Shown here: piece by piece, positions 15,338-62,555 of the stretch
Numbering within the stretch: position 1 is the first letter of the stretch
Layout: every line of letters begins with the position of its first letter
Assembly (NCBI GenBank): GCA_017548545.1
Contig: JAFYZW010000100.1
Span: 29,008 to 93,007 of the forward strand
DNA: 64,000 nucleotides
DNA from: Bacteroidales bacterium
GTDB taxonomy: Bacteria > Bacteroidota > Bacteroidia > Bacteroidales > UBA3663
Direction of reading: 5' to 3'
Program-made: the position numbers and the translations under genes
The notes under the pieces: model-generated
Told to the model about the DNA's origin: nothing
Databases searched by the model: none
The model's input: the letters and a program-made list of their open reading frames with translations, nothing else

Positions 15338-15391
15338 ATGCTTCAATCTGCGGATTGGACTACGAAACGCAAAAACAAAAAATACAACTAT

Positions 15392-16915
15392 ATGAAAAAA
15401 ATCTTTCTGGCAATCATCGTGGCCGTCATCGGCTGCACAATGCTGACCAGCTGCATGAAGTCGATGGGCGGACAAGGCGGCGAGGTCACTGGTGTGCGCG
15501 GACGTTCATGGAATGAACCACAGCCCTATGGCATGGTGCTCGTGAAGCGTGGCTCGATGGAAGTGGGCGCACAAAGTCAGGACTCGCTTTGGGGTGATCT
15601 TTTAGATGCCAAGGGCATATCGGTTGATGCCTTCTGGATGGACGAGAAGGAGGTCTCGAATGCCATGTATCGACAGTTCGTACACTATGTGCGCGACTCG
15701 ATCATCCGTGAACGTCTGGCCGATCCCGCCTACGGAGGCAATGAGGAATACAAGATCGAAGAAGACAAGTATGGCGAGCCCGTCACGCCACACCTCAAGT
15801 GGTCGAAACCCATTCCCTGGCGCAAACCCAACGAGGACGAGGAGCGTGCCATCGAGAGCGTCTATCGCATCGATCCCATCACGGGCAGGAAGATGCTCGA
15901 CGCTCATCAGATGAACTATCGCTATGAGGTGTTTGACTACAACTCGTACGCCCAACGTCGCTATCGTCTCAATCCTGAGCTGCGTGACCTCAACACCGAC
16001 CACGCAGTAGATTATGACGCCGAAGTACTCATTTCAAAAGACACCGCCTTCATCGATGATGACGGCAACATCGTGCGCTCTACTATCGTACGTCCACTCT
16101 CTTCCGAGTGGGACTTCCTCAACACCTACATCGTCAACATCTACCCCGACACCACTGTCTGGGTTAATGACTTTGCCAATGCTTTCACCGACCAGTATGC
16201 ACGCTATTACTTCTCATCGCCCATCTACGACGACTATCCCGTTGTGGGTGTGAGCTGGGAACAGGCCAATGCCTTCTGCCGTTGGCGCACTGAATATCTC
16301 GTGTCGAGCCATGGTATGCGCGGCATCCAGATCGAACCTTACCGTTTGCCCACCGAAGCCGAATGGGAATATGCAGCACGCGCCGGCAACAACGACCAGA
16401 CATTCTCCTGGAAGACCGATATTCCTCACACCGACAAGGGCTGCTACAATGGCAACTTCAAACCAGGCAATGGCGACTATAGTCGCGATGGATACATCAT
16501 CACATCACCCGTCGGTGCTTATCCGAGCAATGATTTCGGCCTTTACGACATGTCGGGCAACGTGGCCGAATGGACTTCAACAGCCTGGACCGAATCGGGT
16601 GTTCATAGTGCTAGCGACATCAACCCCGACTACCATTACAACGCTGCGAAGGAAGATCCCTACCGCATGAAGCGCAAGGTGATTCGTGGCGGTTCGTGGA
16701 AGGATGCCGAACACTACGTTCGTGGCGACGTCCGTTCTTGGGAATACCAGAACGAGCAACGCTCATTCATCGGATTCCGCTGCGTTCGCACCTACCTCGG
16801 CAACAACAAGGCAAACGTAAAGTCCAGCGGCAAGAGCAAAGCCAGCAAACAACCCAAACAAAAGAAAGAACGCGGTGGTGGCGGTGGCGGCAGCCGCTCC
16901 GTAAGAAGAAGATAA
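15392..16915 (+). CDS. porK: T9SS lipoprotein PorK/GldK (SUMF1/FGE-type domain)
   Basis: Lipobox MKKIFLAIIVAVIGCTMLTSC. FGE-sulfatase-like motifs VGVSWEQANAFCRWR, RLPTEAEWEYAAR, GNVAEWT, RGGSW. Tandem TAA TAA stop. Confidence 0.9.
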   Translation: MKKIFLAIIVAVIGCTMLTSCMKSMGGQGGEVTGVRGRSWNEPQPYGMVLVKRGSMEVGAQSQDSLWGDLLDAKGISVDAFWMDEKEVSNAMYRQFVHYVRDSIIRERLADPAYGGNEEYKIEEDKYGEPVTPHLKWSKPIPWRKPNEDEERAIESVYRIDPITGRKMLDAHQMNYRYEVFDYNSYAQRRYRLNPELRDLNTDHAVDYDAEVLISKDTAFIDDDGNIVRSTIVRPLSSEWDFLNTYIVNIYPDTTVWVNDFANAFTDQYARYYFSSPIYDDYPVVGVSWEQANAFCRWRTEYLVSSHGMRGIQIEPYRLPTEAEWEYAARAGNNDQTFSWKTDIPHTDKGCYNGNFKPGNGDYSRDGYIITSPVGAYPSNDFGLYDMSGNVAEWTSTAWTESGVHSASDINPDYHYNAAKEDPYRMKRKVIRGGSWKDAEHYVRGDVRSWEYQNEQRSFIGFRCVRTYLGNNKANVKSSGKSKASKQPKQKKERGGGGGGSRSVRRR

Positions 16916-16929
16916 TAATCAGCCATCTA

Positions 16930-16971
16930 TCTAGAACATCTAGAGAATCTAGAATATCTAGACAGTCTAGA
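16930..16971. repeat. five TCTAGA palindromes at an exact 9-bp period (porK-porL spacer)
   Basis: TCTAGA at 16930, 16939, 16948, 16957 and 16966. Units are tctagaaca/tctagagaa/tctagaata/tctagacag/tctagaaaa. Confidence 0.95.
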
Positions 16972-16995
16972 AAAAACAAATAACAACATAACAAT

Positions 16996-18009
16996 ATGAA
17001 CTTCCGTAATATTCTTCATATCCTTCAGGTCTTCAAGGGTGAGAAGGGACAGAAACGATTCAACTATCTCTACTCCATCGGTGCATCTATCGTTATCCTT
17101 GGTGCACTCTTCAAGTTGACCCACGTACCTGGAGCCGACCTTATGCTCATCATCGGTATGGGTACCGAGGCTGTTATCTTCTTCCTTTCTGCATTCGACA
17201 CTCCTGCACGCGACTATAAGTGGGAGAAGGTTTATCCTGAACTCGACATTCCCAACAAGGAGGAGGCTGCTCGCGAACGCCTCGACCGCATGAAAGATGG
17301 AACTACCGAATCTCGCCGACGCAGCAGCGAAACCAACACCGGCAGTGGAACTGGCGGCAACGTCACCATCATCGGTGGTGGCATGCCCGCAGGTGGAACC
17401 ATCGTCGTTGGTGGCGGTTCTCCGGTAGCTGGTGGCACAACTGTAATCGGCAGCAATCCCGCTGCTGTCGGCACAACGGCTCCCCTCGTTGCCTCAGGCA
17501 ATGTTGGCGTTACACCAGAACAGGCCGACCAGGTCACCGAAGCCACCGAGAAATACGTGAAGCAACTCAACGAAATCAGTGTGGCCCTCAGCAAACTGCA
17601 AGAGACAATGGCTGCCCTCGACACTACCACCAGCTATGCCGAGCAGATGGCTACGCTCAATCGCAACATCCAAGGTCTCAACACCATCTACGAGATACAG
17701 CTCAAGAGCGTCAGCTCGCAGCTCGGAACCATCGAAATGGTCAACCAGGGCCTCAACAACATCCGTGCGCTTTACGAAAACGGTCAGAACGATTCGTTCC
17801 GCATCCGTCAGGAGACCGATCAGATGACACGCAACTTGCAGCAGCTCAACGAAGTCTATGCCCGCATGTTGCAAGCCATGACCGTAGGCTATGGTTTGCA
17901 AGCACAACAACCCATGCAGCAGCCCACGATGCCCTATCAGCCACAGCAGCCACAGCAACCGCTCTATGGCCAGCAGCCCTCTCAGCCAAACTACAATCCA
18001 CAAAGATAA
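16996..18009 (+). CDS. porL: T9SS motor protein PorL/GldL
   Basis: N-terminus FNYLYSIGASIVILGALFKLTHVPGADLMLIIGMGTEAVIFFLSAFD (two TM helices typical of GldL). Position in the operon. Confidence 0.9.
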   Translation: MNFRNILHILQVFKGEKGQKRFNYLYSIGASIVILGALFKLTHVPGADLMLIIGMGTEAVIFFLSAFDTPARDYKWEKVYPELDIPNKEEAARERLDRMKDGTTESRRRSSETNTGSGTGGNVTIIGGGMPAGGTIVVGGGSPVAGGTTVIGSNPAAVGTTAPLVASGNVGVTPEQADQVTEATEKYVKQLNEISVALSKLQETMAALDTTTSYAEQMATLNRNIQGLNTIYEIQLKSVSSQLGTIEMVNQGLNNIRALYENGQNDSFRIRQETDQMTRNLQQLNEVYARMLQAMTVGYGLQAQQPMQQPTMPYQPQQPQQPLYGQQPSQPNYNPQR

Positions 18010-18020
18010 AGGTTAACCCC

Positions 18021-18069
18021 CTCAAACCTTTCAAACCCCTCAAACCCTTCAAACCCCTCAAACCCCTCA
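18021..18069. repeat. five and a half copies of the 9-mer (C/T)TCAAACC(C/T) (porL-porM spacer)
   Basis: ctcaaacct ttcaaaccc ctcaaaccc ttcaaaccc ctcaaaccc ctca. It ends at the TAA directly abutting the porM ATG. Confidence 0.95.
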
Positions 18070-18072
18070 TAA

Positions 18073-19626
18073 ATGAGTGCCAATAACAGCAAACTGTCGC
18101 CCCGTCAGAAGATGATCAACCTGATGTACATCGTCTTTCTGGCCATGGTGGCCATGAACGTATCAGGCGATGTCCTCGAAGGCTTCAAGCACGTCGAGGA
18201 CGCACTGGATGCAAGTAATGCCGGAGCGCAGTCTCGCAACCAAAAACTATACCAAGAGTTCGACCTCGCTCGCGAGAAGAACCCTGAGAAGGTGTCCCGA
18301 TGGTACGACCATGCCCAGGAGGTTCGCACAAGTGCCGAACAGCTTGTCACTTTCATCGACTCACTCAAGCTCGAGATTGTCCGCTATGCCGATGGCAAGG
18401 ATGGCGACCCCAACAATATCGAGAACCGCGAGAACCTGGAAGCAGTCAACCAAGTCATGCTTTCCCCCATTAAAGGCGAAGGCGCAATACTTCGCAAGCG
18501 ACTCGAATCCTACAAGGAGCAACTTGTGGCCTTCCTTCCCGAAGCTGACGCACGTGTGGTAGCCAACTACCTCAACACAGCCAAGACGGGCGCGACCTTT
18601 GCCAGTTGGGAAGACCAGATGTTCGAGAATATCCCCGTCGCCGCAGCTGTCACCATCCTTGCCAAGATACAAGGCGATGTGCGCAATGCCGAAGGACAAG
18701 CTGTCGAAAGCCTTATGCAAAGCGTCGATCGTGGCGATGTGCGTGTCAACCAAGTTAGTGCCTTCGTGATCCCCACTTCTCGTAATGTGATGCGTGGTTC
18801 GGTTTATGAGGCACAGATTGTCATGGCTGCCGTCGATACAACCCAGACACCGACAATCTATATTGGTGACAAGCTTTACAATCCCGCCAAGCAGGGCTAC
18901 TACAGTGTCACTGCCGGACGTGAAGGCATCCAAACGCTGCAGGGTTACCTCGAAGTCGATAAACCTGATGGAACGACCGAGAAATTGCCTTTCGAATCGA
19001 CCTACTTCGTCAGCGAACCTGTGGCCACCGTGTCGAACACGATGATGAACGTGATGTACGCAGGCATCGACAACCCGCTGTCGATCTCCGTTCCTGGCGT
19101 AGCTGCCGGACAGGTCAGCGCATCGATGACCAATGGCACACTCTCGCGCACTGCTTCCGGTTGGGTAGCAAAACCCAAGACCGTCGATCAGGATGCCGTC
19201 ATCACCGTGACAGCCAACCAGAACGGTCGCACCATGACCGTGAGCCAGACATCGTTCCGCGTACGTCGTCTGCCCGACCCCACCCCTTATCTTGTGTATA
19301 AGGATGCCGCAGGCAACTCGGTGCGATACAAAGGCGGCTTGCCCATCTCCAAGCAGGCGCTACTCAATGCGGGAGGCCTCCGTGCCGCCATCGACGACGG
19401 ATTGCTCAACGTCGAGTTCACCGTCAAGTCGTTCCGTATCGACATCTTCGACTCAATGGGCAACGACATTCCCGAGGATAGCCAGACCTCGGCTTACTCC
19501 GATCGTCAGCGAACGGCCATCAGTCGCCTGCAGCGTGGCAAGAAGTTCTTTATCACCCGCGTCAAGGCCGTTGGTCCCGACGGCATCGAACGCACTCTTT
19601 CGCCCATCGAAGTCGTCGTCAATTGA
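18073..19626 (+). CDS. porM: T9SS motor/periplasmic shaft protein PorM/GldM
   Basis: KLSPRQKMINLMYIVFLAMVAMNVS is the N-terminal GldM signature. 517 aa. Position in the operon. Confidence 0.9.
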   Translation: MSANNSKLSPRQKMINLMYIVFLAMVAMNVSGDVLEGFKHVEDALDASNAGAQSRNQKLYQEFDLAREKNPEKVSRWYDHAQEVRTSAEQLVTFIDSLKLEIVRYADGKDGDPNNIENRENLEAVNQVMLSPIKGEGAILRKRLESYKEQLVAFLPEADARVVANYLNTAKTGATFASWEDQMFENIPVAAAVTILAKIQGDVRNAEGQAVESLMQSVDRGDVRVNQVSAFVIPTSRNVMRGSVYEAQIVMAAVDTTQTPTIYIGDKLYNPAKQGYYSVTAGREGIQTLQGYLEVDKPDGTTEKLPFESTYFVSEPVATVSNTMMNVMYAGIDNPLSISVPGVAAGQVSASMTNGTLSRTASGWVAKPKTVDQDAVITVTANQNGRTMTVSQTSFRVRRLPDPTPYLVYKDAAGNSVRYKGGLPISKQALLNAGGLRAAIDDGLLNVEFTVKSFRIDIFDSMGNDIPEDSQTSAYSDRQRTAISRLQRGKKFFITRVKAVGPDGIERTLSPIEVVVN

Positions 19627-27136: not shown

Positions 27137-27190
27137 TTCAAACCCTTCAAACTCCTCAAACCCTTCAAACTCCTCAAACCCCTTAATCCC
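27137..27190. repeat. six copies of the same 9-mer family (C/T)TCAAAC(C/T)C in the djlA 5' leader
   Basis: ttcaaaccc ttcaaactc ctcaaaccc ttcaaactc ctcaaaccc cttaatccc. Lies between the -7 box (27111-27118) and the ATG at 27199. Confidence 0.95.
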
Positions 27191-27198
27191 ATCACCCT

Positions 27199-30561: not shown

Positions 30562-33060
30562 ATGAAACCCCTCCTCATAGCCACCGCCCTGCTCGCCCTC
30601 TCCGCCTGCACCACCGTTCCCCATCAAACCACCCGTGACGAAGCGCTCGACTTCCTCTACGCCTCCATGCCCTTGCCCGATAGTGTCGATTACAGCCGCG
30701 ATTTCTGGCTTGCCAACATCGACTGTTCCCTTCGCGCCCGCGAAGAGATGCCATGGGGCAAGACCATCCCCGAGCGCGAGTGGCGCCACTTCGTCCTCCC
30801 TGTGCGCGTCAACAACGAGAACCTCGACACCTGCCGCATGGTCTTCTACCGCCAGCTCAAGGATCGCGTCAAAGACCTCTCGATGACGGATGCCATCCTC
30901 GAAGTGAACCATTGGTGCCACGAGCGCGTCACCTACCAGCCCACCGATGAACGAACCTCCTCGCCCTTGGCCACCATCCGCACGGCTTACGGTCGCTGTG
31001 GTGAGGAATCGACCTTCCTCGTAGCAGCCTTGCGCAGTGTCGGTATTCCCGCCCGACAGGTCTATACGCCACGCTGGGCGCATACCGACGACAACCACGC
31101 TTGGGTCGAAGCATGGGCCGATGGACGTTGGCACTTCCTCGGAGCCTGCGAACCGGAACCCGTCCTCGACCTTGGCTGGTTCAATCAGCCCGCTTCGCGT
31201 GCCATGCTCATGCACACCAAGGTCTTCGGCCAATACGACGGTCCCGAGCCCGTCATGCAGCGCAACGCCTGTTTCACCGAGATCGATGTCACCAACGGAT
31301 ATGCTCCCGTAGCACGTAGTTACATACAGGTGCTCGACGTCGAAGGCAACCCCGTAGCCGATGCCACAGTGGAGTTCAAGATCTACAACTATGCCGAGTT
31401 CTACACCGTTGCCCGTCATCAGACCGACCGCAATGGCCTAACCTCTATGCAGGCAGGTCTTGGCGACCTCATCTGCTGGGCCAGCAAGGATGGAGCCTAT
31501 GGTTTCGATAAAATACACATCGGCGACACCGACACACTTCGACTGACACTCAGTCATCATACTGGCGAACGATACAACCTCGATCTCGAGATTGTGCCTC
31601 CTATCGAACGAAATACGTTACCCGAAGTCACGGCCGAGCAACGAGAATTCAACGCGCTTCGCCTCGCTTACGAAGATTCTCTGCGCAATGCATACGTCTC
31701 TACTTTCCCCGTCACAGAGGACCCGTTCATCCTCGCCTCACGTGGCAATCATAAAGTAATACGTCAATTCCTCGAAGCACCCGACATTGCAGGACAAGAC
31801 ATCCCTGTCACGCTCCGCCGCCAACTGCTCCTAGCACTTTCCGAAAAGGACCTACGCGACGTCACCCCCGATGTGCTCGTAGATGCCTTCTTCGGTCTAG
31901 ACGCAGTTATGCCGGAAGCCATCGATGGCTTCCACATTCAGTATGTCCTGAATCCACGAGTAGCCAACGAAGGGCTCCGTCCCTACAAGGCATTCTTCGC
32001 CCATGAGATACCCGATAATCAGCAAGCTACTTGGAGGGACAATCCGTCGGAACTCGTTTCCTGGATGAATCAAAACATCCGACTCGACACCCTACGAAAT
32101 CCACAAAACCTGCGGATGAGTCCTGTAGGTGCCTGGAAGAGCAAATGCTGCGATGCAGTATCGCGCGATATCCTCTTCGTGGCTCTGGCTCGCAGTTGCA
32201 GGATTCCTGCACGCATCGACCCAGTGACACGCAAGGTGCAGATGGCCTCGGCTGCCGATCTTGTCTGGAAAGATGTGACGTTCCACCAAACCCAATCCGA
32301 AACGTCATCCAAAGGCAGTCTGGCACTCCAATGGCAGCCTACAAAATACCAGCTCGATCCCAAGTACTACATCCATTTCACACTTTCCCAAATCAAGGAC
32401 GGCACAGCCTCCCTGCTCAACTATGGGGAAGAGGAAACCTTCCATACGCTCTTTGGTGGCCGCAAGGTGCAGCAGCTCGACTGCGGAGACTACCTTCTCA
32501 TCTCTGGTACACGCATGGCCAATGGTTCCGTGCTAGCCCACGTCGAAGTGGCTCCTGTCGAACAGGGACAGACCACTCGTCTGCCCCTCGTACTCCGTCA
32601 GGCCGAAACGGGGCTGCAAGTCATCGGCAGCTTCAACAGCGAGAACCTGTATAACGACCATGTGCAAGGCCCGAAAACCTTGCTCTCCACCACAGGACGA
32701 GGCTATTACATCCTCGGCATCATCGCGCCTAGCAACGAGCCTACCAATCACGCGCTGCGCGATATTGCCCAATACAAGGACGCCATCGACCAATGGGGTG
32801 GCACCCTCGTCCTCCTCTTCCGCAACGAACAGGAAGCCAATAGATTCAATCTTGCTGATTATCCCCTCCTCCCCAACAAAACGGCAATAGGTACCGACAT
32901 CGACAATAAGATCTTCACCGAGATTTACACCGAGATGCACCTAAAAGGCACTCCGCCCATCTTCATCATCGCCGACACCTTCAACCGCGTCGTCTTTCTC
33001 TCCGAAGGCTACACCATTGGGCTGGGCGAACAACTCAGCCGCGCAATCTCATCGCTATAG
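30562..33060 (+). CDS. transglutaminase-domain lipoprotein
   Basis: Lipobox MKPLLIATALLALSAC. Transglutaminase core YGRCGEESTFLVAALRSVGIPARQVYTPRWAHTDDNHAWVEAWADGRWHFL (Cys-His-Asp). Confidence 0.8.
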   Translation: MKPLLIATALLALSACTTVPHQTTRDEALDFLYASMPLPDSVDYSRDFWLANIDCSLRAREEMPWGKTIPEREWRHFVLPVRVNNENLDTCRMVFYRQLKDRVKDLSMTDAILEVNHWCHERVTYQPTDERTSSPLATIRTAYGRCGEESTFLVAALRSVGIPARQVYTPRWAHTDDNHAWVEAWADGRWHFLGACEPEPVLDLGWFNQPASRAMLMHTKVFGQYDGPEPVMQRNACFTEIDVTNGYAPVARSYIQVLDVEGNPVADATVEFKIYNYAEFYTVARHQTDRNGLTSMQAGLGDLICWASKDGAYGFDKIHIGDTDTLRLTLSHHTGERYNLDLEIVPPIERNTLPEVTAEQREFNALRLAYEDSLRNAYVSTFPVTEDPFILASRGNHKVIRQFLEAPDIAGQDIPVTLRRQLLLALSEKDLRDVTPDVLVDAFFGLDAVMPEAIDGFHIQYVLNPRVANEGLRPYKAFFAHEIPDNQQATWRDNPSELVSWMNQNIRLDTLRNPQNLRMSPVGAWKSKCCDAVSRDILFVALARSCRIPARIDPVTRKVQMASAADLVWKDVTFHQTQSETSSKGSLALQWQPTKYQLDPKYYIHFTLSQIKDGTASLLNYGEEETFHTLFGGRKVQQLDCGDYLLISGTRMANGSVLAHVEVAPVEQGQTTRLPLVLRQAETGLQVIGSFNSENLYNDHVQGPKTLLSTTGRGYYILGIIAPSNEPTNHALRDIAQYKDAIDQWGGTLVLLFRNEQEANRFNLADYPLLPNKTAIGTDIDNKIFTEIYTEMHLKGTPPIFIIADTFNRVVFLSEGYTIGLGEQLSRAISSL

Positions 33061-33109
33061 AACTGATATATCCTGCTATAATCATTTATTAGTCTATAAA
33101 AAATGTATG

Positions 33110-33510
33110 AAGCATTATGTCGGCCGTCAGAGTACTCTATCAAATTGCGCAAGCACTATGTCGCGCGTCAGAGTGCTCTATCAAATCGCGCAAGCACTAT
33201 GTCGCGCGTCAGAGTGCTCTATCAAATCGCGGAAGCATTATGTCGGCCGTCAGAGTGCTCTATCAAATCGCGCAAGCACTATGTCGGCCGTCAGAGTGCT
33301 ATATCAAATCGCAGCAAGCACTATGTCGCGCGTCAGAGTGCTATATCAAATCGCGCAAGCACTATGTCGCGCGTCAGAGTGCTCTATCAAATCGCGCAAG
33401 CACTATGTCGGCCGTCAGAGTGCTATATCAAATCGCGCAAGCATTATGTCGGCCGTCAGAGTGCTATATCAAATCGCGCAAGCATTATGTCGGCCGTCAG
33501 AGTGCTATAT
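33110..33510. repeat. tandem array of about 9.75 copies of a 41-bp unit (one copy is 42 bp), each containing a 26-bp imperfect dyad
   Basis: Units start at 33110, 33151, 33192, 33233, 33274, 33316, 33357, 33398, 33439 and 33480 (partial). Consensus AAGCACTATGTCG(CG/GC)CGTCAGAGTGCT(C/A)TATCAAATCGCGC. Confidence 0.95.
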
Positions 33511-33566
33511 TTCCTCCAATATTACTATTTTTTCTAAAAAGATTTGGTGAATAATTGAAAACTCTA

Positions 33567-33574
33567 TATCTTTG
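33567..33574 (+). promoter_or_regulatory. -7 box TATCTTTG (hypothetical lipoprotein)
   Basis: Exact match, 61 nt upstream of the ATG at 33636 and 57 nt downstream of the 41-bp array. Confidence 0.55.
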
Positions 33575-33635
33575 CACATTGGATAGATTAATAGAGCAAA
33601 ACAAATAATGTATGATCCATAACAATAACAGAATA

Positions 33636-34550
33636 ATGAAAGCAAAATCAATTCTGATTCTCTGTCTCTTGTGCATTTTGCTGAGTAGTTGCTTTGACGT
33701 GAAAGATGGAGGGAAACGACCCTCTACGCCTTGGGTACCGCTATCGCAAGACGCAGAGGAAAGTATCGTGGACGACTACGCAGCAGCGCTTGACGAGTTT
33801 GCCTCGATTATGCCGATATTCGGACAAGATACCGAAGCACTTTGGGTTGCAGACACCGTTCATGCGATGGCAAAGACCGTAAAAATGAGCCATTCCCTAT
33901 TCACGAAAAAATATGCCACCATCAGCCAGATGCAGAACTACCTCGGCTATGGAATGGCATATCGTACCGCAATCACAGCAAAAGCCAAGGATGCTGAACT
34001 ATCCGATTATGCACTTCGCATCATCCCGCACTGCGATTCAATCTACACAAGGTTGAGGGAAACGAAGTTTCAGAACGTGACACTGCTTTCCCTCTTCAAT
34101 ATCCTGTCCATACAGAACATGCAGCTATTCACAACACTCACCCGCATCAACAATAATCTGGAGATGGACAAGGAAATCAACTACACGATGTATGCGCTCA
34201 GTGTTGTCGATAGCCTCTCTCGGATAGAGGACTATTCCGACAAGGACATCTACAAGATTTCGGCCATCATGGAATCCACCTCATATTTCCAGATGATTTG
34301 TCCATTGCTGAAGCTCTTTGCAGGGTCAAAGGAGAAATACAATTCGAATATGGTCCTTGTAGACAATGCGGCCCTGCACTTCGATTTTCGTTCCAAGCCG
34401 ATGATTGAAGACTTAGGTTCAGGGAAAAAAGTCTATGTGATGGAGGATGCCAAATTCGAAGAATGGATGCTTGATGCCACCGCTCACAAGGTCAAGCTGC
34501 TGAAACTCCTGACGCAGTATGTGAGAGAATATAATCCGAAGGGTGAATAA
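33636..34550 (+). CDS. hypothetical lipoprotein
   Basis: Lipobox MKAKSILILCLLCILLSSC. An exact -7 box lies 61 nt upstream. Composition is visibly more A+T-rich than the neighbours (by eye). No family recognised. Confidence 0.6.
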   Translation: MKAKSILILCLLCILLSSCFDVKDGGKRPSTPWVPLSQDAEESIVDDYAAALDEFASIMPIFGQDTEALWVADTVHAMAKTVKMSHSLFTKKYATISQMQNYLGYGMAYRTAITAKAKDAELSDYALRIIPHCDSIYTRLRETKFQNVTLLSLFNILSIQNMQLFTTLTRINNNLEMDKEINYTMYALSVVDSLSRIEDYSDKDIYKISAIMESTSYFQMICPLLKLFAGSKEKYNSNMVLVDNAALHFDFRSKPMIEDLGSGKKVYVMEDAKFEEWMLDATAHKVKLLKLLTQYVREYNPKGE

Positions 34551-58759: not shown

Positions 58760-59917
58760 TTAGCCAAGGAATGCGAGAAGCACACCTGCTGCCACTGCGG
58801 AACCGATGACACCGGCCACATTGGGACCCATGGCGTGCATAAGCAGGTAGTTGGTAGGATCGTACTTGAGGCCCACCTCCTGGCTGATGCGTGCCGAATC
58901 GGGCACAGCTGATACGCCGGCATTGCCGATGAGTGGGTTGATCTTCTTGCCTTCGGGCAGGAACAGATTGAAGAACTTGACGAAGAGCACGCCCGAAGCT
59001 GTGGCAACGATGAAAGAGAGCGCACCGAGACCAAAGATTTCGAGCGACTCGGCTTTGAGGAAGGTCGATGCCTGGGTCGAACAACCCACGGTGAAGCCCA
59101 GCAGAATGGTGACAATATCAATGAGCGGTCCCTTGGCTGTATCAGCCAGACGACGGGTGACACCCGACTCCTTCAGCAGATTGCCGAAGAAGAGCATACC
59201 GAGCAATGGGAGGCCCGAAGGGATGATCCACGTGGTGAGGAGCAGACCCAATATCGGGAAGATGATCTTCTGACGCTGGCTCACCGAACCAGGTGCCTTC
59301 ATACGGATGCGACGTTCCTTGTCGGTGGTGAGCAGTTTCATTACAGGCGGCTGGAACACGGGTATCAGCGCCATGTAGGAATAGGCGGCCACCGCAATGG
59401 CACCCATCAGGTCGGGAGCAAGTTTGCTCGAAAGGAAGATGGCCGTAGGTCCGTCAGCTCCACCGATAATGCCGATGGCACCCGCCTCTTGAGGCGAGAA
59501 TCCAAGGGCAAGCGATAGCATGTAAGCACCAAAGATGCCAAACTGTGCCGCAGCACCCACCAGCACCATCTTCGGATTGGCGATTAGTGCCGAGAAGTCG
59601 GTCATCGCCCCAATGCCCAAAAAGATGAGCGGAGGATACCAGCCCTGCTTCACGCCACTATAGAGGATATTGAGCACCGACCCCTCCTCGTAAATGCCGA
59701 TACGCAAACCCGCATCAAGAGGGAAAGGAATGTTACCTACCAGAATGCCGAAGCCAATGGGAACAAGGAGCATCGGCTCGAAATGTCGGGCAATGGCAAG
59801 ATAGATGAAAAGGCAGCCGACAATGGTCATCACCACATTGCCGACCTCCACATTGCCAAAACCTGTATATTCCCAAAGGACCTGCAGATTCTCTATAAAG
59901 AAGTCCAACTTATTCAT
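58760..59917 (-). CDS. sodium ion-translocating decarboxylase beta subunit (OadB/MmdB family)
   Basis: GNVVMTIVGCLFIYLAIARHFEPMLLVPIGFGILVGNIP...GAMTDF...GGADGPTAIF are conserved OadB membrane motifs. Confidence 0.85.
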   Translation of the reverse strand: MNKLDFFIENLQVLWEYTGFGNVEVGNVVMTIVGCLFIYLAIARHFEPMLLVPIGFGILVGNIPFPLDAGLRIGIYEEGSVLNILYSGVKQGWYPPLIFLGIGAMTDFSALIANPKMVLVGAAAQFGIFGAYMLSLALGFSPQEAGAIGIIGGADGPTAIFLSSKLAPDLMGAIAVAAYSYMALIPVFQPPVMKLLTTDKERRIRMKAPGSVSQRQKIIFPILGLLLTTWIIPSGLPLLGMLFFGNLLKESGVTRRLADTAKGPLIDIVTILLGFTVGCSTQASTFLKAESLEIFGLGALSFIVATASGVLFVKFFNLFLPEGKKINPLIGNAGVSAVPDSARISQEVGLKYDPTNYLLMHAMGPNVAGVIGSAVAAGVLLAFLG

Positions 59918-59926
59918 TCGACACGT

Positions 59927-62455
59927 TTACTTTTTCTTGCTTATCAAGTCACGCAGACGACCGAACAGACCAGTCTTTTTCTGCTCTTCCTCGTTATAGC
60001 CGTAGCCATAACCATACCGATAGCCATAACCGTAGCCATATCCATAGCTGTAGCCATAGCTATAACCATACTTCGCCTTGCGACTCGACATCTGGACATC
60101 GTTCAGGATGATCGAAACATTTTTCAGCTTCTCGGCCTTCACGGCTGCCTCAATCTCATTGATGAAGCGCAGGTCCGATTTGCCCGAACGCACCACGTAG
60201 ATGTTGCGATCGACGTGCTTGTTGAGCGTCATCGGATCGGCAATCACCAGATAAGGAGGTGAATCAAGTATGATATAATCGTAAACCTCACGCAGATTGG
60301 TGATAAGGACACCGAATCGCTCGCTCGACAACAACTCGTTTGGATTGGGTGGTACGCCACCCTTGAGCAACAGATCCAGCCCAGGGAATTCCTTGATCGG
60401 CACAATCGTCTGATGCCAGTCGTCCAGTTCGCCGCTCAGGTAATTCGACAATCCGACCGTTTGGTTACGCGGTAGGTCGAACAGTCGGCGCTGACGTCCC
60501 TTGCGAAGGTCGGTCTCCACCAGTATCACCTTCTTGCCTATCGAGCAGAGACTGATAGCCACATTGGCCGAAACGAACGACTTGCCTTCACCGGGAATGC
60601 TGGAAGTGAACTGCAGCACCTTACCCGTCATGAAGCCGATATTGGTGCGAATCGTTCGCATGGCTTCCGACAATACCGACGACGAACCCGATGAGCCTTC
60701 CTCGGCCATATCCGATGCCTTGAAGACGCGACCTTCTCGACGCGGCACGACGCCCAGCAACGGCACACGTGTACGCGACACGATGTCATCAGGATTCTGC
60801 ACCTTGGTCTTCATCAGCATCAGGAGATAGACGATAAGCAGAGGCAGGAGGAAACCGATGACGAAGGCCACAAGAATCACCTGACGTTTATTGGGACCCA
60901 CCAGCACGGTATTGTTCTCAGGATATTCCACTACACGGGCGATATCCGGCTCAGCCACGATGGTGAGCATCGTCTCTTCACGTTTCTTCTGCAACAGCAC
61001 ATAGAGCGGCTCGATCACCGAGCGTTCGCGTTCGATCTGTGCCAGGTTGATCTTCTGACCGGGCACACTCGACAGGTATCCCTTCGAACGCCCTTGCTGA
61101 CGTGCCAGTTCCGAACGCTGCAGCGTCAGGCTGGTCTTCTGGTTGGCTATCGACTTCTCAATCACAGCTCTCAAGTCTGTGATCTGCTTGCTCAAACGCT
61201 GCACCACTGGGCTGTTCTCCGACGAACCTGCCAGCAGTCGTGCTCGTTCGATACATGCCGTATTGTAGTTGGTGATGAAGCCGACAATCGAGGGGTCGCT
61301 CAGTCCCACGTTGCTGGGCAGCACCGTATAAGGCTGATTCGACTTGAGCTCGTTGGCAATCATCTCAAGGAGGGTCAGCTGCACATCCACCTCCTGCAAC
61401 TGCTGCTGGGCAGTCGCATCGGTATTGAGCGACAACTTGGCCTGTGAATCCAGATCGACCATGCGGTTCTTCGAACTGAACTGCTGGATGTTGCCCTCCA
61501 CTGCCGACAACTGGCCACTGAGGTCCTCCAGACGACCGTCGATAAACTCCATCGTCTTGGCGTTCGACGTCATGTAGTAGGTCTTGGTCAGCTCGTTGTA
61601 TTTCTCGATGGCCTTGGCCAGAACCTTCTCAGCACGCTCAGGGTGAATATCCCGCATCACGAGCTGCAGGATCGAACTAGTACTCATGCGCGAACTTTGG
61701 TCCTCCATCACCTCCACGCCAATCTGACGGGCAAGCTCGCGAGCACGGGCCTGTGGCGAATAAAGCATGATGTAGTGCGAACCCGACATGAAATAGTCGT
61801 AGGAATTGCCCTTGAATCGCGACTTGGCTTCATCCCAAAAGCCGAATCTCACGGCTCCCCAATTCCGGAGGGGCAGTTCTTCGCCGAAACGCACCACCTG
61901 GTCGGCATAGAGGCTCTCGCCATCACTTCCAAACAGACGGCGCACCGAGACTTTGAGCGAAGTGGTATCCACCACATCGTAGTCGATGCGGAACGTCGGG
62001 AGATTATTCAGGTTGAGGCTGTCGTTGGGAATATACGTCATACGCACCTCCTGGGGCAAAGTCTCGCGATTCACCCAGTGGTTGCGAACGAAGTACCGCA
62101 CATTCAGGCCCAGCTCATCGACCACAGCCTGCAACACCGGAGTCGATTTGATGATGATCTTCTCGTTGGTCAGACTGTTGTACGACTGCATGCCCGTCAT
62201 GTCGGCAATGAACGACATCTGTGCACTGGAGCTCATGCCGGCATTCTTGTCAGTGGTAACCATGACAAGGGCAGCGCTGTGATAAGTCTTCGGCTTGACA
62301 TAAAGATACACAGCCGCACAGCAGAGACAAATGAAGATGGAGAGGATGATCCAATAGCGAAGCGCCCAAGTCAATTCAAGGATGGCACGCAGACTCAGAC
62401 CACTGCCCGATTGCAGCTCGTCCTCCTCCTGCTCATTGATGATGTACTCACTCAT
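59927..62455 (-). CDS. polysaccharide biosynthesis tyrosine autokinase (Wzc/GumC-like chain-length regulator)
   Basis: Wzz-like N-terminus with two TM segments and a coiled periplasmic region. Walker A SSIPGEGKSFVSANVA, A' ILVETDLRKG, B IILDSPP. C-terminal Tyr cluster YGYSYGYSYGYGYGYGYRYGYGYGY. Confidence 0.85.
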   Translation of the reverse strand: MSEYIINEQEEDELQSGSGLSLRAILELTWALRYWIILSIFICLCCAAVYLYVKPKTYHSAALVMVTTDKNAGMSSSAQMSFIADMTGMQSYNSLTNEKIIIKSTPVLQAVVDELGLNVRYFVRNHWVNRETLPQEVRMTYIPNDSLNLNNLPTFRIDYDVVDTTSLKVSVRRLFGSDGESLYADQVVRFGEELPLRNWGAVRFGFWDEAKSRFKGNSYDYFMSGSHYIMLYSPQARARELARQIGVEVMEDQSSRMSTSSILQLVMRDIHPERAEKVLAKAIEKYNELTKTYYMTSNAKTMEFIDGRLEDLSGQLSAVEGNIQQFSSKNRMVDLDSQAKLSLNTDATAQQQLQEVDVQLTLLEMIANELKSNQPYTVLPSNVGLSDPSIVGFITNYNTACIERARLLAGSSENSPVVQRLSKQITDLRAVIEKSIANQKTSLTLQRSELARQQGRSKGYLSSVPGQKINLAQIERERSVIEPLYVLLQKKREETMLTIVAEPDIARVVEYPENNTVLVGPNKRQVILVAFVIGFLLPLLIVYLLMLMKTKVQNPDDIVSRTRVPLLGVVPRREGRVFKASDMAEEGSSGSSSVLSEAMRTIRTNIGFMTGKVLQFTSSIPGEGKSFVSANVAISLCSIGKKVILVETDLRKGRQRRLFDLPRNQTVGLSNYLSGELDDWHQTIVPIKEFPGLDLLLKGGVPPNPNELLSSERFGVLITNLREVYDYIILDSPPYLVIADPMTLNKHVDRNIYVVRSGKSDLRFINEIEAAVKAEKLKNVSIILNDVQMSSRKAKYGYSYGYSYGYGYGYGYRYGYGYGYNEEEQKKTGLFGRLRDLISKKK
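59996..60070 (-). repeat. 25-codon (Tyr-Gly/Ser/Arg) dipeptide repeat encoding the Wzc tyrosine cluster
   Basis: On the minus strand: TAT GGT TAT AGC TAT GGC TAC AGC TAT GGA TAT GGC TAC GGT TAT GGC TAT CGG TAT GGT TAT GGC TAC GGC TAT. This gives 13 Tyr in 25 residues. Confidence 0.9.
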
Positions 62456-62483
62456 GTAACGTGCTATTGATCGATAAAAAATG

Positions 62484-62555
62484 TACCCAGACTGGGAATC
62501 GAACCCAGATCAAAGGTTTAGGAAACCTCCGTTCTATCCGTTGAACTATCCAGGC
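62484..62555 (-). tRNA. tRNA-Arg (anticodon CCT), 72 nt, CCA not encoded
   Basis: Manual fold of the reverse strand: acceptor GCCTGGA/TCTGGGT (7 bp, three of them G-U), D arm GTTC-AACGGATA-GAAC, anticodon arm GAGGT-TTCCTAA-ACCTT, variable loop TGAT, T arm CTGGG-TTCGATT-CCCAG, discriminator A. Confidence 0.8.

Follow-up and report, generated by a model that had tools for sequence, protein, structure and literature searches.

A tandem palindrome array as a probable locus of a dispersed REP/BIME-like minisatellite family in uncultured rumen Bacteroidales

Introduction

Mycobacterial interspersed repetitive units used as markers with a variable number of tandem repeats (MIRU-VNTR) are direct tandem repeats of 40-100 bp that occupy dozens of intergenic loci and differ in copy number between strains. 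MIRUs are oriented with the genes of the flanking operon and carry short in-phase open reading frames (ORFs). RAYTs, the tyrosine transposases associated with repetitive extragenic palindromes (REPs), are single-copy genes. In Bacteroidetes, the repeats on either side of RAYTs of subclass 2.6 are reported to be atypical, without GT[AG]G and with a weaker structure (PMC6006769). A second repeat from the same phylum is BrickBuilt of Porphyromonas gingivalis, a minisatellite and MITE (miniature inverted-repeat transposable element) with ~19 intergenic copies per genome at 49-591 nt from the nearest genes, built from 23-nt units with conserved leader and tail subunits that carry terminal inverted repeats (PMC4596501). 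Here, we analyse a tandem array of palindromic units at positions 33110-33510 of a 64,000-nucleotide stretch of contig JAFYZW010000100.1 from an uncultured Bacteroidales bacterium; this whole stretch is called the window in the following. With a probability of roughly 0.7, the array is one locus of a dispersed minisatellite family that resembles REPs and bacterial interspersed mosaic elements (BIMEs) and is found in uncultured rumen Bacteroidales. No description of this family was found in the literature searched.

Results

Structure of the array in the window

Tandem Repeats Finder detects a single strong array in the window at 33110-33510, with a period of 41, 9.8 copies, 94% matches and a score of 653, and also reports a higher-order period of 206 bp. 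Anchoring the units on the dyad yields ten imperfect 26-bp dyads separated by nine linkers of 15-16 nt on the plus strand between 33111 and 33506 (type A units, linker CTATCAAATCGCGCA). The spacing is 41 bp throughout except for unit 5, which has an extra A in its linker (ATATCAAATCGCAGCA) and measures 42 bp. The central hexamer is CGCGCG in dyads 2 (33152-33177), 3 (33193-33218), 6 (33317-33342) and 7 (33358-33383). It is CGGCCG in dyads 1 (33111-33136), 4 (33234-33259), 5 (33275-33300), 8 (33399-33424), 9 (33440-33465) and 10 (33481-33506). The left arm reads AGCATT in units 1, 4, 9 and 10. Dyad 1 (AGCATTATGTCGGCCGTCAGAGTACT) is an edge unit and the most divergent one; its right arm AGTACT introduces a C.A mismatch that breaks the pair and does not compensate the left-arm change. 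The last dyad is followed by 4 nt of linker and then by unique sequence. The original prediction of ten head-to-tail dyads with two centre types, four CGCGCG and six CGGCCG, at a 41-bp period is confirmed, with the amendment that one unit has 42 bp.

The dyad is imperfect also in the best units, where 11 of 13 positions are complementary and the mismatches A.G at pair 7-20 and T.T at pair 10-17 are fixed. If up to 3 mismatches are allowed, it matches 10 times in the 64-kb window, always within the array, compared to 0.00 matches in shuffled sequence. Units 2-5 resemble units 6-9. Because of this four-unit higher-order structure, the 4:6 split of the centres does not represent ten independent observations; the 6-unit allele described below has a 2:4 split. 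All three plus frames are free of stops, and the overlapping ORFs called across the array (33017-33550, 33103-33537 and 33117-33554) are artefacts; the array is non-coding, as first proposed.

Dispersal of the unit over many intergenic loci

A scan with the dyad GCAYTATGTCGNNCGTCAGAGTRCT over one genome per species (GTDB species genomes) finds 22 stretches in five metagenome-assembled genomes (MAGs) of rumen Bacteroidales from water buffalo, sheep, reindeer and cattle. The stretches are found on both strands and several are located at contig ends. The MAG RGIG8089 holds 13 of the 22, which correspond to 12 arrays with ~90 units (L003 continues L005) in a fragmented assembly whose contigs are broken by the arrays. 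Scanning metagenomes with the dyad adds 30 contigs, and the artefactual array ORF used as a protein query retrieves 46 similar 'proteins' from MAGs in ENA, JGI and NCBI. Neither the dyad scan of the viral collection nor BLAST against phage and plasmid collections gave a match. These 46, among them P0032, P0050 and P0053, are annotation artefacts, array-derived 'hypothetical proteins' of public gene calls such as NCBI J5543_07585 and IKH58_10930.

Every array is intergenic and none is spanned by a long ORF. The neighbours are unrelated to each other and comprise housekeeping or glycan-degradation genes, including those for a transglutaminase-like protein, ClpA, a dynamin-like GTPase, aminopeptidase P, GH3, GH63, an extracytoplasmic function (ECF) sigma factor and alanine dehydrogenase; no mobile-element gene was seen among them in the Pfam annotation of the loci. 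With orthologous loci collapsed according to our own grouping, six arrays run in the same direction as the upstream gene and seven in the opposite direction, and some lie between divergent genes such as the pair of ECF sigma factor and alanine dehydrogenase. The same dyad is thus dispersed at many loci, in either orientation and beside unrelated genes. A locus-specific function, and the proposed iteron- or parS-like loading array in particular, is not supported by this distribution. The observation that the original prediction had itself named as speaking against it, a REP/MITE-type family spread through the genome, is essentially what was found, yet for a family without prior description.

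We also compared array orientation with local GC skew. The skew is negative at 30 of 39 loci, which reduces to ~13 versus 7 after collapsing orthologues and is not significant; this signal was discounted, and local skew mainly reflects the coding strand. Non-orthologous arrays are not surrounded by any conserved leader or tail, except for a 32-nt stretch common to L007 and L011. In these two non-orthologous loci of RGIG8089, the stretch (AGAAAACCCGGTTTC.ATTC..AATTTGCTTC) is located 14-45 nt upstream of the first unit and is 91% identical.

Unit architecture and palindrome types

The family unit consists of a 26-bp imperfect palindrome and a 15-16-nt linker, which together make up 41-42 bp and are stacked head-to-tail. 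Among the 149 units of the first 22 loci, the dyad is conserved and the linker is genome-specific: the window and RGIG7607 share CTATCAAATCGCGCA, RGIG8089 carries TCTTCCATCGTAGCA, and RUG465 and RGIG6006 carry ATTTCCCGTAGAAGA. Between 9 and 13 of the 13 pairs are complementary in each unit, with the mismatches fixed at the same pairs 7-20 and 10-17. Other palindromes fill the same 42-bp frame, often within the same intergenic region. These are type B (TGACCAWTCTTGGCCAAGAWTGGTCA), type C (TGYACTACTTGYGTACACTTGRTACA), type D (TGTCCCCYAACGWWCGTWAGRGGACA) and the types E and F downstream of clpA. Within blocks, consecutive units follow each other at 41 or 42 bp in 553 of 554 cases. A loose linker motif, TYTCCNATCGNMGCA, is common to types A, B and D. 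GTAG is present in the linkers of some genomes at varying distance from the dyad; no conserved GTAG or CGTC tag was found in the linkers, and the window-type linker CTATCAAATCGCGCA contains neither.

Blocks of different type form composites that keep one polarity and reach 1.3 kb and ~30 units. Downstream of clpA, the block order is B-A(8-10)-C(7-8), and at locus L044 it is A10-D11-C8 over 1.34 kb, while other loci alternate A-B or A-B-B. The L044 tract (2533-3873) is non-coding, and its arrays of type A (10 units), D (11 units) and C (8 units) are split by unique spacers of 83 nt and 61 nt; L043 is the same composite locus, reversed. Types E (L063, 7400-7767) and F (L065, 7557-7850) are unit types with 42-bp period downstream of clpA in more distant relatives. 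In type E, a loop of 12 nt is closed by a stem of 10 bp (GCATRTCCCC) and two subtypes alternate; its array in L063 extends into the contig end. Type F has the conserved linker TCAGCGGCC.

Concerted evolution and turnover of the arrays

Three genomes share the window locus, with 10 units in the window, 6 units in L059 and 8 units in L004 (RGIG8089). Over 20 kb, L059 is 99.90-99.96% identical to the window, and its array is shorter by exactly 165 nt, corresponding to one 4-unit block. A single unequal crossover, with units 5 and 9 as the inferred partners, accounts for this 6-unit allele. The window array can therefore be read as 1-[2345]-[6789]-10 with centres G-CCGG-CCGG-G. The idea of a VNTR tentatively holds, with 6 versus 10 units in strains that are 99.9% identical. 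Compared to the window, L004 has flanks of ~87% identity and an identical array start, and its linkers are of the RGIG8089 type. Arrays persist at orthologous positions across species and vary in copy number because blocks of units are exchanged unequally but in register.

The units of the window differ from those of L004, the same locus in another genome, by a mean of 10.8 positions per 41 nt. They differ from non-orthologous units of RGIG7607 by a mean of 6.2 positions, with a nearest-neighbour median of 1. For L004 and other RGIG8089 loci, the mean is 7.4 positions and the nearest-neighbour median is 2. The sequence of a unit follows its genome and not its locus, and the arrays thus evolve in concert. 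Edge units differ from internal ones, as would be expected if the interior of an array is homogenised by unequal exchange. Of 89 terminal units, 28 have A17, which closes the T.T mismatch, compared to 12 of the 309 internal ones. Edge units escape homogenisation.

Relatives of graded distance can be compared at the site downstream of clpA. At 99% ClpA identity the B-A-C composite is found, and at 91% identity only C with half of B left. Type E is found at 86% identity, no array at 83%, type F at 79% and again no array at 75%. This series shows the turnover of arrays at one site.

Symmetry, covariation and folding

When the 83 distinct dyads of the two types A and B are taken together, 82% of the cells pair compared to 73% in shuffles. 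Changes on both sides occur in 93 cells, with 41.7 +/- 5.3 in shuffles, and affect 10 of the 13 pairs; the covariation score reaches 0.304, compared to 0.144 in shuffles. Differences between the types account for nearly all of this signal. Within type A (426 dyads, 161 distinct), covariation of stem pairs is absent, with an odds ratio of 1.3 (p = 0.74) at pair 3-24 and p = 0.34 at pair 5-22, where T.G is the majority state. Uncompensated transitions are common in type A; for example, 30% of units have C.A at pair 6-21. An association is seen for pair 13-14 alone, and positions 13 and 14 are neighbouring bases. Most genomes sampled contain both centre states, and the intermediate CGCCCG is found in 24 of 426 type A dyads. 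Type D centres are not palindromic.

Palindromy is a defining constraint of the superfamily, and the change of centre within the window array is weak evidence for it. That the dyad symmetry characterises the family is upheld by at least five unrelated palindromes within one unit architecture and by the both-side changes at 10 of 13 pairs. The original prediction had taken the switch between CGCGCG and CGGCCG as a compensatory change and as evidence for selection on symmetry. This argument does not hold: the bases concerned, 13 and 14, are adjacent and are loop positions in a hairpin, type D dispenses with a palindromic centre, and none of the type A stem pairs covaries. Both states are old alleles that duplication of units has spread. 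It had also been argued that the left-arm variant AGCATT would still pair as G-U in a plus-strand RNA. C.A mismatches, for which G-U pairing would require the minus strand, are common as well, orientation is unbiased and promoter motifs into the arrays are all but lacking (see below), so that this reasoning finds no support either.

As RNA, the whole window array folds far better than shuffled sequence (z = -7.7), because neighbouring units pair together as in any array of palindromes. Such pairing between neighbours was considered as the cause of the palindromic centre. It fits the doublets of the window, fails at L016 with its alternating centres and in mixed A-B arrays, and was rejected.

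Transcription signals and RNA families

We tested 35 arrays with both flanks available for the Bacteroidetes -7 motif TAnnTTTG. It points into the array from the 5' side in 0 of 35 cases and from the 3' side in 1 of 35; outward-pointing motifs number 17. Rfam gave no match at gathering scores and only chance-level matches at E up to 10. Two further candidate signals were rejected. Sigma-70-like promoters on the minus strand of each unit result from scanning the repeat with the wrong consensus, as Bacteroidetes use TTTG/TAnnTTTG, and were dismissed because the TTGATA-bearing linker differs in other genomes. Terminator-like hairpins after composite arrays are bordered on either side by A and T tracts and are consistent with convergent downstream genes.

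Flanking genes and other repeats in the window

The array follows the gene for an 832-aa transglutaminase-like protein (30562-33060, plus strand; PF01841, 3e-24), whose stop is located 51 nt before the array; no other terminator was found after this gene. The same upstream neighbour is present at L004 and L059. Downstream of the array and pointing away from it, a putative Bacteroidetes-type promoter can be read from the sequence at 33543-33574 on the plus strand. Here, TATCTTTG at 33567-33574 fits the -7 motif TAnnTTTG, and TTTG is present at 33543-33546. Both landmarks given initially, the transglutaminase stop at 33060 and the -7 box at 33567, are correct. The putative promoter is conserved at L004, enters the survey of 35 arrays as a motif of downstream sense and precedes the gene for a putative lipoprotein of 312 aa (33612-34550, plus strand; N-terminus MKAKSILILCLLCILLSSC; no Pfam match). 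Homologues of this gene were rejected as a source of empty sites, as the distant homologues are not syntenic.

The window contains several other short repeats. Five TCTAGA palindromes with a 9-bp period (ATCTAGAAC...) at 16929-16972 occupy most of the 80-nt spacer between the ORFs 15338-16915 and 16996-18009; the window is otherwise very poor in CTAG, with 26 observed and 94 expected sites. Related 9-bp tandem repeats are located at 18018-18069 (CCCCTCAAA, 5.8 copies) and 27137-27194 (TTCAAACCC, 5 copies), the first of them lying at the 3' end of the stop-free stretch 17241-18083. Overlapping long ORFs on both strands (59588-60259, plus; 59930-62509, minus) contain a degenerate hexamer repeat, ATAGCC in 12.5 copies at 59996-60070, which in minus-strand translation would give a repeat rich in Gly and Tyr. 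Outside the array, the 64-kb window holds a single GTCGAC site compared to ~34 expected from a Markov model, a deficit that suggests restriction-modification of the SalI type in this organism; CCGG (0.58) and GATC (0.63) are reduced as well. The idea that the dyad centre is a restriction-modification site was rejected, since CGGCCG, CGCGCG, GGCC, CGCG and GCGC show no depletion in the rest of the window.

Discussion

The dispersal over unrelated intergenic loci, the fixed unit frame and the genome-wide homogenisation lead us to regard the array in the window as probably one locus of a REP/BIME-like minisatellite family. The element would act, or simply persist, at the DNA level and not as an RNA gene. 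The palindrome may be kept as a recognition feature of a machinery that propagates or binds the repeat. One candidate reader is a RAYT-like Y1 HUH enzyme of the Bacteroidetes subclass 2.6, which could act on a hairpin of single-stranded DNA; another is a dimeric protein that would bind the dyad in duplex DNA. At the window locus, the array probably has little specific role beyond that of a spacer between the 3' end of the transglutaminase gene and the lipoprotein promoter, and it may help to terminate or stabilise the upstream transcript, as REPs do.

Several observations weigh against this assignment. No empty site with a target duplication was found, and mobility is thus not shown. A search for RAYTs or other transposases (HUH...Y..NP in six frames and the Pfam family Y1_Tnp) was negative in the window and in 66 loci covering ~8-20 kb per array. 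REP/BIME elements differ from the family units, which are direct repeats at a fixed period of 41-42 bp with one polarity and have no conserved tetranucleotide tag (GTAG/CGTC). The uncompensated stem variation within type A means that current selection for pairing is not demonstrated. Common internal units would fold weakly as DNA, at -2.6 to -6 kcal/mol versus -10.5 kcal/mol for the perfect edge form, and as RNA they reach ~-10 kcal/mol with z near 0, no better than shuffles. Finally, all data stem from short-read metagenome assemblies, in which copy numbers may be collapsed.

If the arrays were instead read by a dimeric protein on double-stranded DNA, nucleoid-associated or gyrase-like as for BIME-2 of E. 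coli, the period of 41-42 bp would correspond to about four helical turns and place all sites on one face. The period is strict in all palindrome types, type A conserves sequence and not pairing with half-sites that are consistently different, the self-complementary centre exists in two states with few intermediates (24 CC of 426), hairpins are weak, and the spacers that hold the arrays are apparently not transcribed. However, several proteins or one reader of shape would be needed for at least five unrelated palindromes, the arrays have no linked candidate protein, type D lacks a palindromic centre, and the period may simply descend from a common ancestral unit, so that we regard phased protein sites as unlikely. 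A transcribed multi-hairpin RNA appears improbable to us as well, whether as an element that terminates or stabilises the upstream mRNA at its 3' end or as a precursor of 41-42-nt hairpin RNAs in analogy to type III antitoxins and CRISPR. It draws on the arrays at the window, L004 and clpA, which are co-oriented with the upstream gene at a distance of 51-116 nt and would be transcribed by read-through, on the lack of another terminator after the transglutaminase gene, on the T.G majority at pair 5-22 and on the linker motif common to types A, B and D. Against it, the array is antisense to the upstream gene or lies between divergent genes at about half of the independent loci, and promoter motifs into the array are limited to the single case on the 3' side. 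The favourable folding energy of the whole array (z = -7.7) results from pairing between repeats, while the single-unit hairpin is no better than shuffled sequence. C.A mismatches are frequent too, Rfam has no match, and a conserved toxin or cas gene is absent from the neighbourhood.

Hardly any weight can be given to an iteron, parS-like or operator array that serves the neighbouring genes of this one locus, the leading idea at the outset. Tandem dyads upstream of a promoter and the conserved position in two other genomes fit such a function, but it is contradicted by the dispersal of the same unit at many unrelated loci in five species, by unit sequences that follow the genome and not the locus, by copy numbers that differ between near-identical strains and by the absence of replication or partition genes nearby. 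Least probable of all is a protein-coding repeat or an assembly artefact. All three plus frames are open and public annotations call ORFs over such arrays, but units of 41 and 42 bp are mixed, the ORFs stop at the array edges, and the stop-free frames are not conserved elsewhere, as in the RGIG8089 linkers with their TAG. Arrays with the same junctions in independent NCBI, ENA and JGI assemblies speak against an artefact.

A more far-reaching interpretation of the REP/BIME-like family is possible but doubtful at present, namely that of an undescribed class of satellite DNA in rumen Bacteroidales. It would be defined by an invariant ruler of 41-42 bp (about four helical turns), by palindromes A-F that are replaced wholesale between lineages while the period and part of the linker persist, by a fixed block order and by concerted evolution of all arrays. 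If this holds, a dedicated machinery would be needed that measures the unit and also transfers copies of it from one locus to another; passive slippage would not be the cause. Such a machinery could be the Bacteroidetes-specific RAYT of subclass 2.6 or a new DNA-binding or recombination protein.

The family is an apparently undescribed repeat of abundant uncultured rumen bacteria and offers a concrete candidate for the 'atypical REPs' of Bacteroidetes. Its arrays break short-read assemblies, with several located at contig ends, and they give rise to spurious proteins in public MAG annotations. They also represent ready-made VNTR markers for strain typing. With a strict period over unrelated palindromes and homogenisation across the genome at fixed loci, the copying of repeats between loci becomes testable in a new phylum.

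Compared to known systems, the family shares with REP/BIME elements and their RAYTs the short imperfect palindromes (20-40 bp; here 26 nt), the strictly extragenic location and the dispersed copies (PMC6006769, PMC3733652). It further shares several sequence types combined in mosaics, species-specific sequences and persistence at orthologous sites. Like the repeats described for subclass 2.6 (PMC6006769), it lacks a conserved GT[AG]G and is weakly structured. REP/BIME elements differ in that no RAYT was observed here and in that the family arrays reach ~30 units and 1.3 kb. REPINs are inverted pairs and BIMEs alternate in orientation, neither of which is seen within family arrays or composite blocks. 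CRISPR and type III toxin-antitoxin (ToxI-like) arrays are likewise made of regularly spaced, partly palindromic repeats of similar size; in contrast to these, the family has no unique spacers, as its 15-16-nt linkers are themselves repeated, it has no promoter or leader, it occupies many loci per genome, and neither cas nor toxin genes are among its neighbours. Unlike iteron or parS arrays, it occurs at many loci with housekeeping neighbours, without replication or partition genes nearby and without a plasmid or phage match. The family resembles MIRU-VNTR in its direct tandem repeats at many intergenic loci with copy numbers that differ between strains, and it is unlike MIRUs in mixing 41- and 42-bp units, in lacking an orientation bias (6 versus 7) and in that each unit is palindromic. 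With BrickBuilt, it has in common the occurrence in Bacteroidales and a spacer-less intergenic tandem minisatellite (PMC4596501); it differs by units of 41-42 nt that are each palindromic and by the lack of a leader or tail shared among non-orthologous arrays. On their defining features, membership in REP/REPIN, BIME, MIRU, BrickBuilt, CRISPR and iteron/parS systems therefore fails. By analogy, the closest resemblance would be to REP/BIME elements and to dispersed minisatellites such as MIRU or BrickBuilt.

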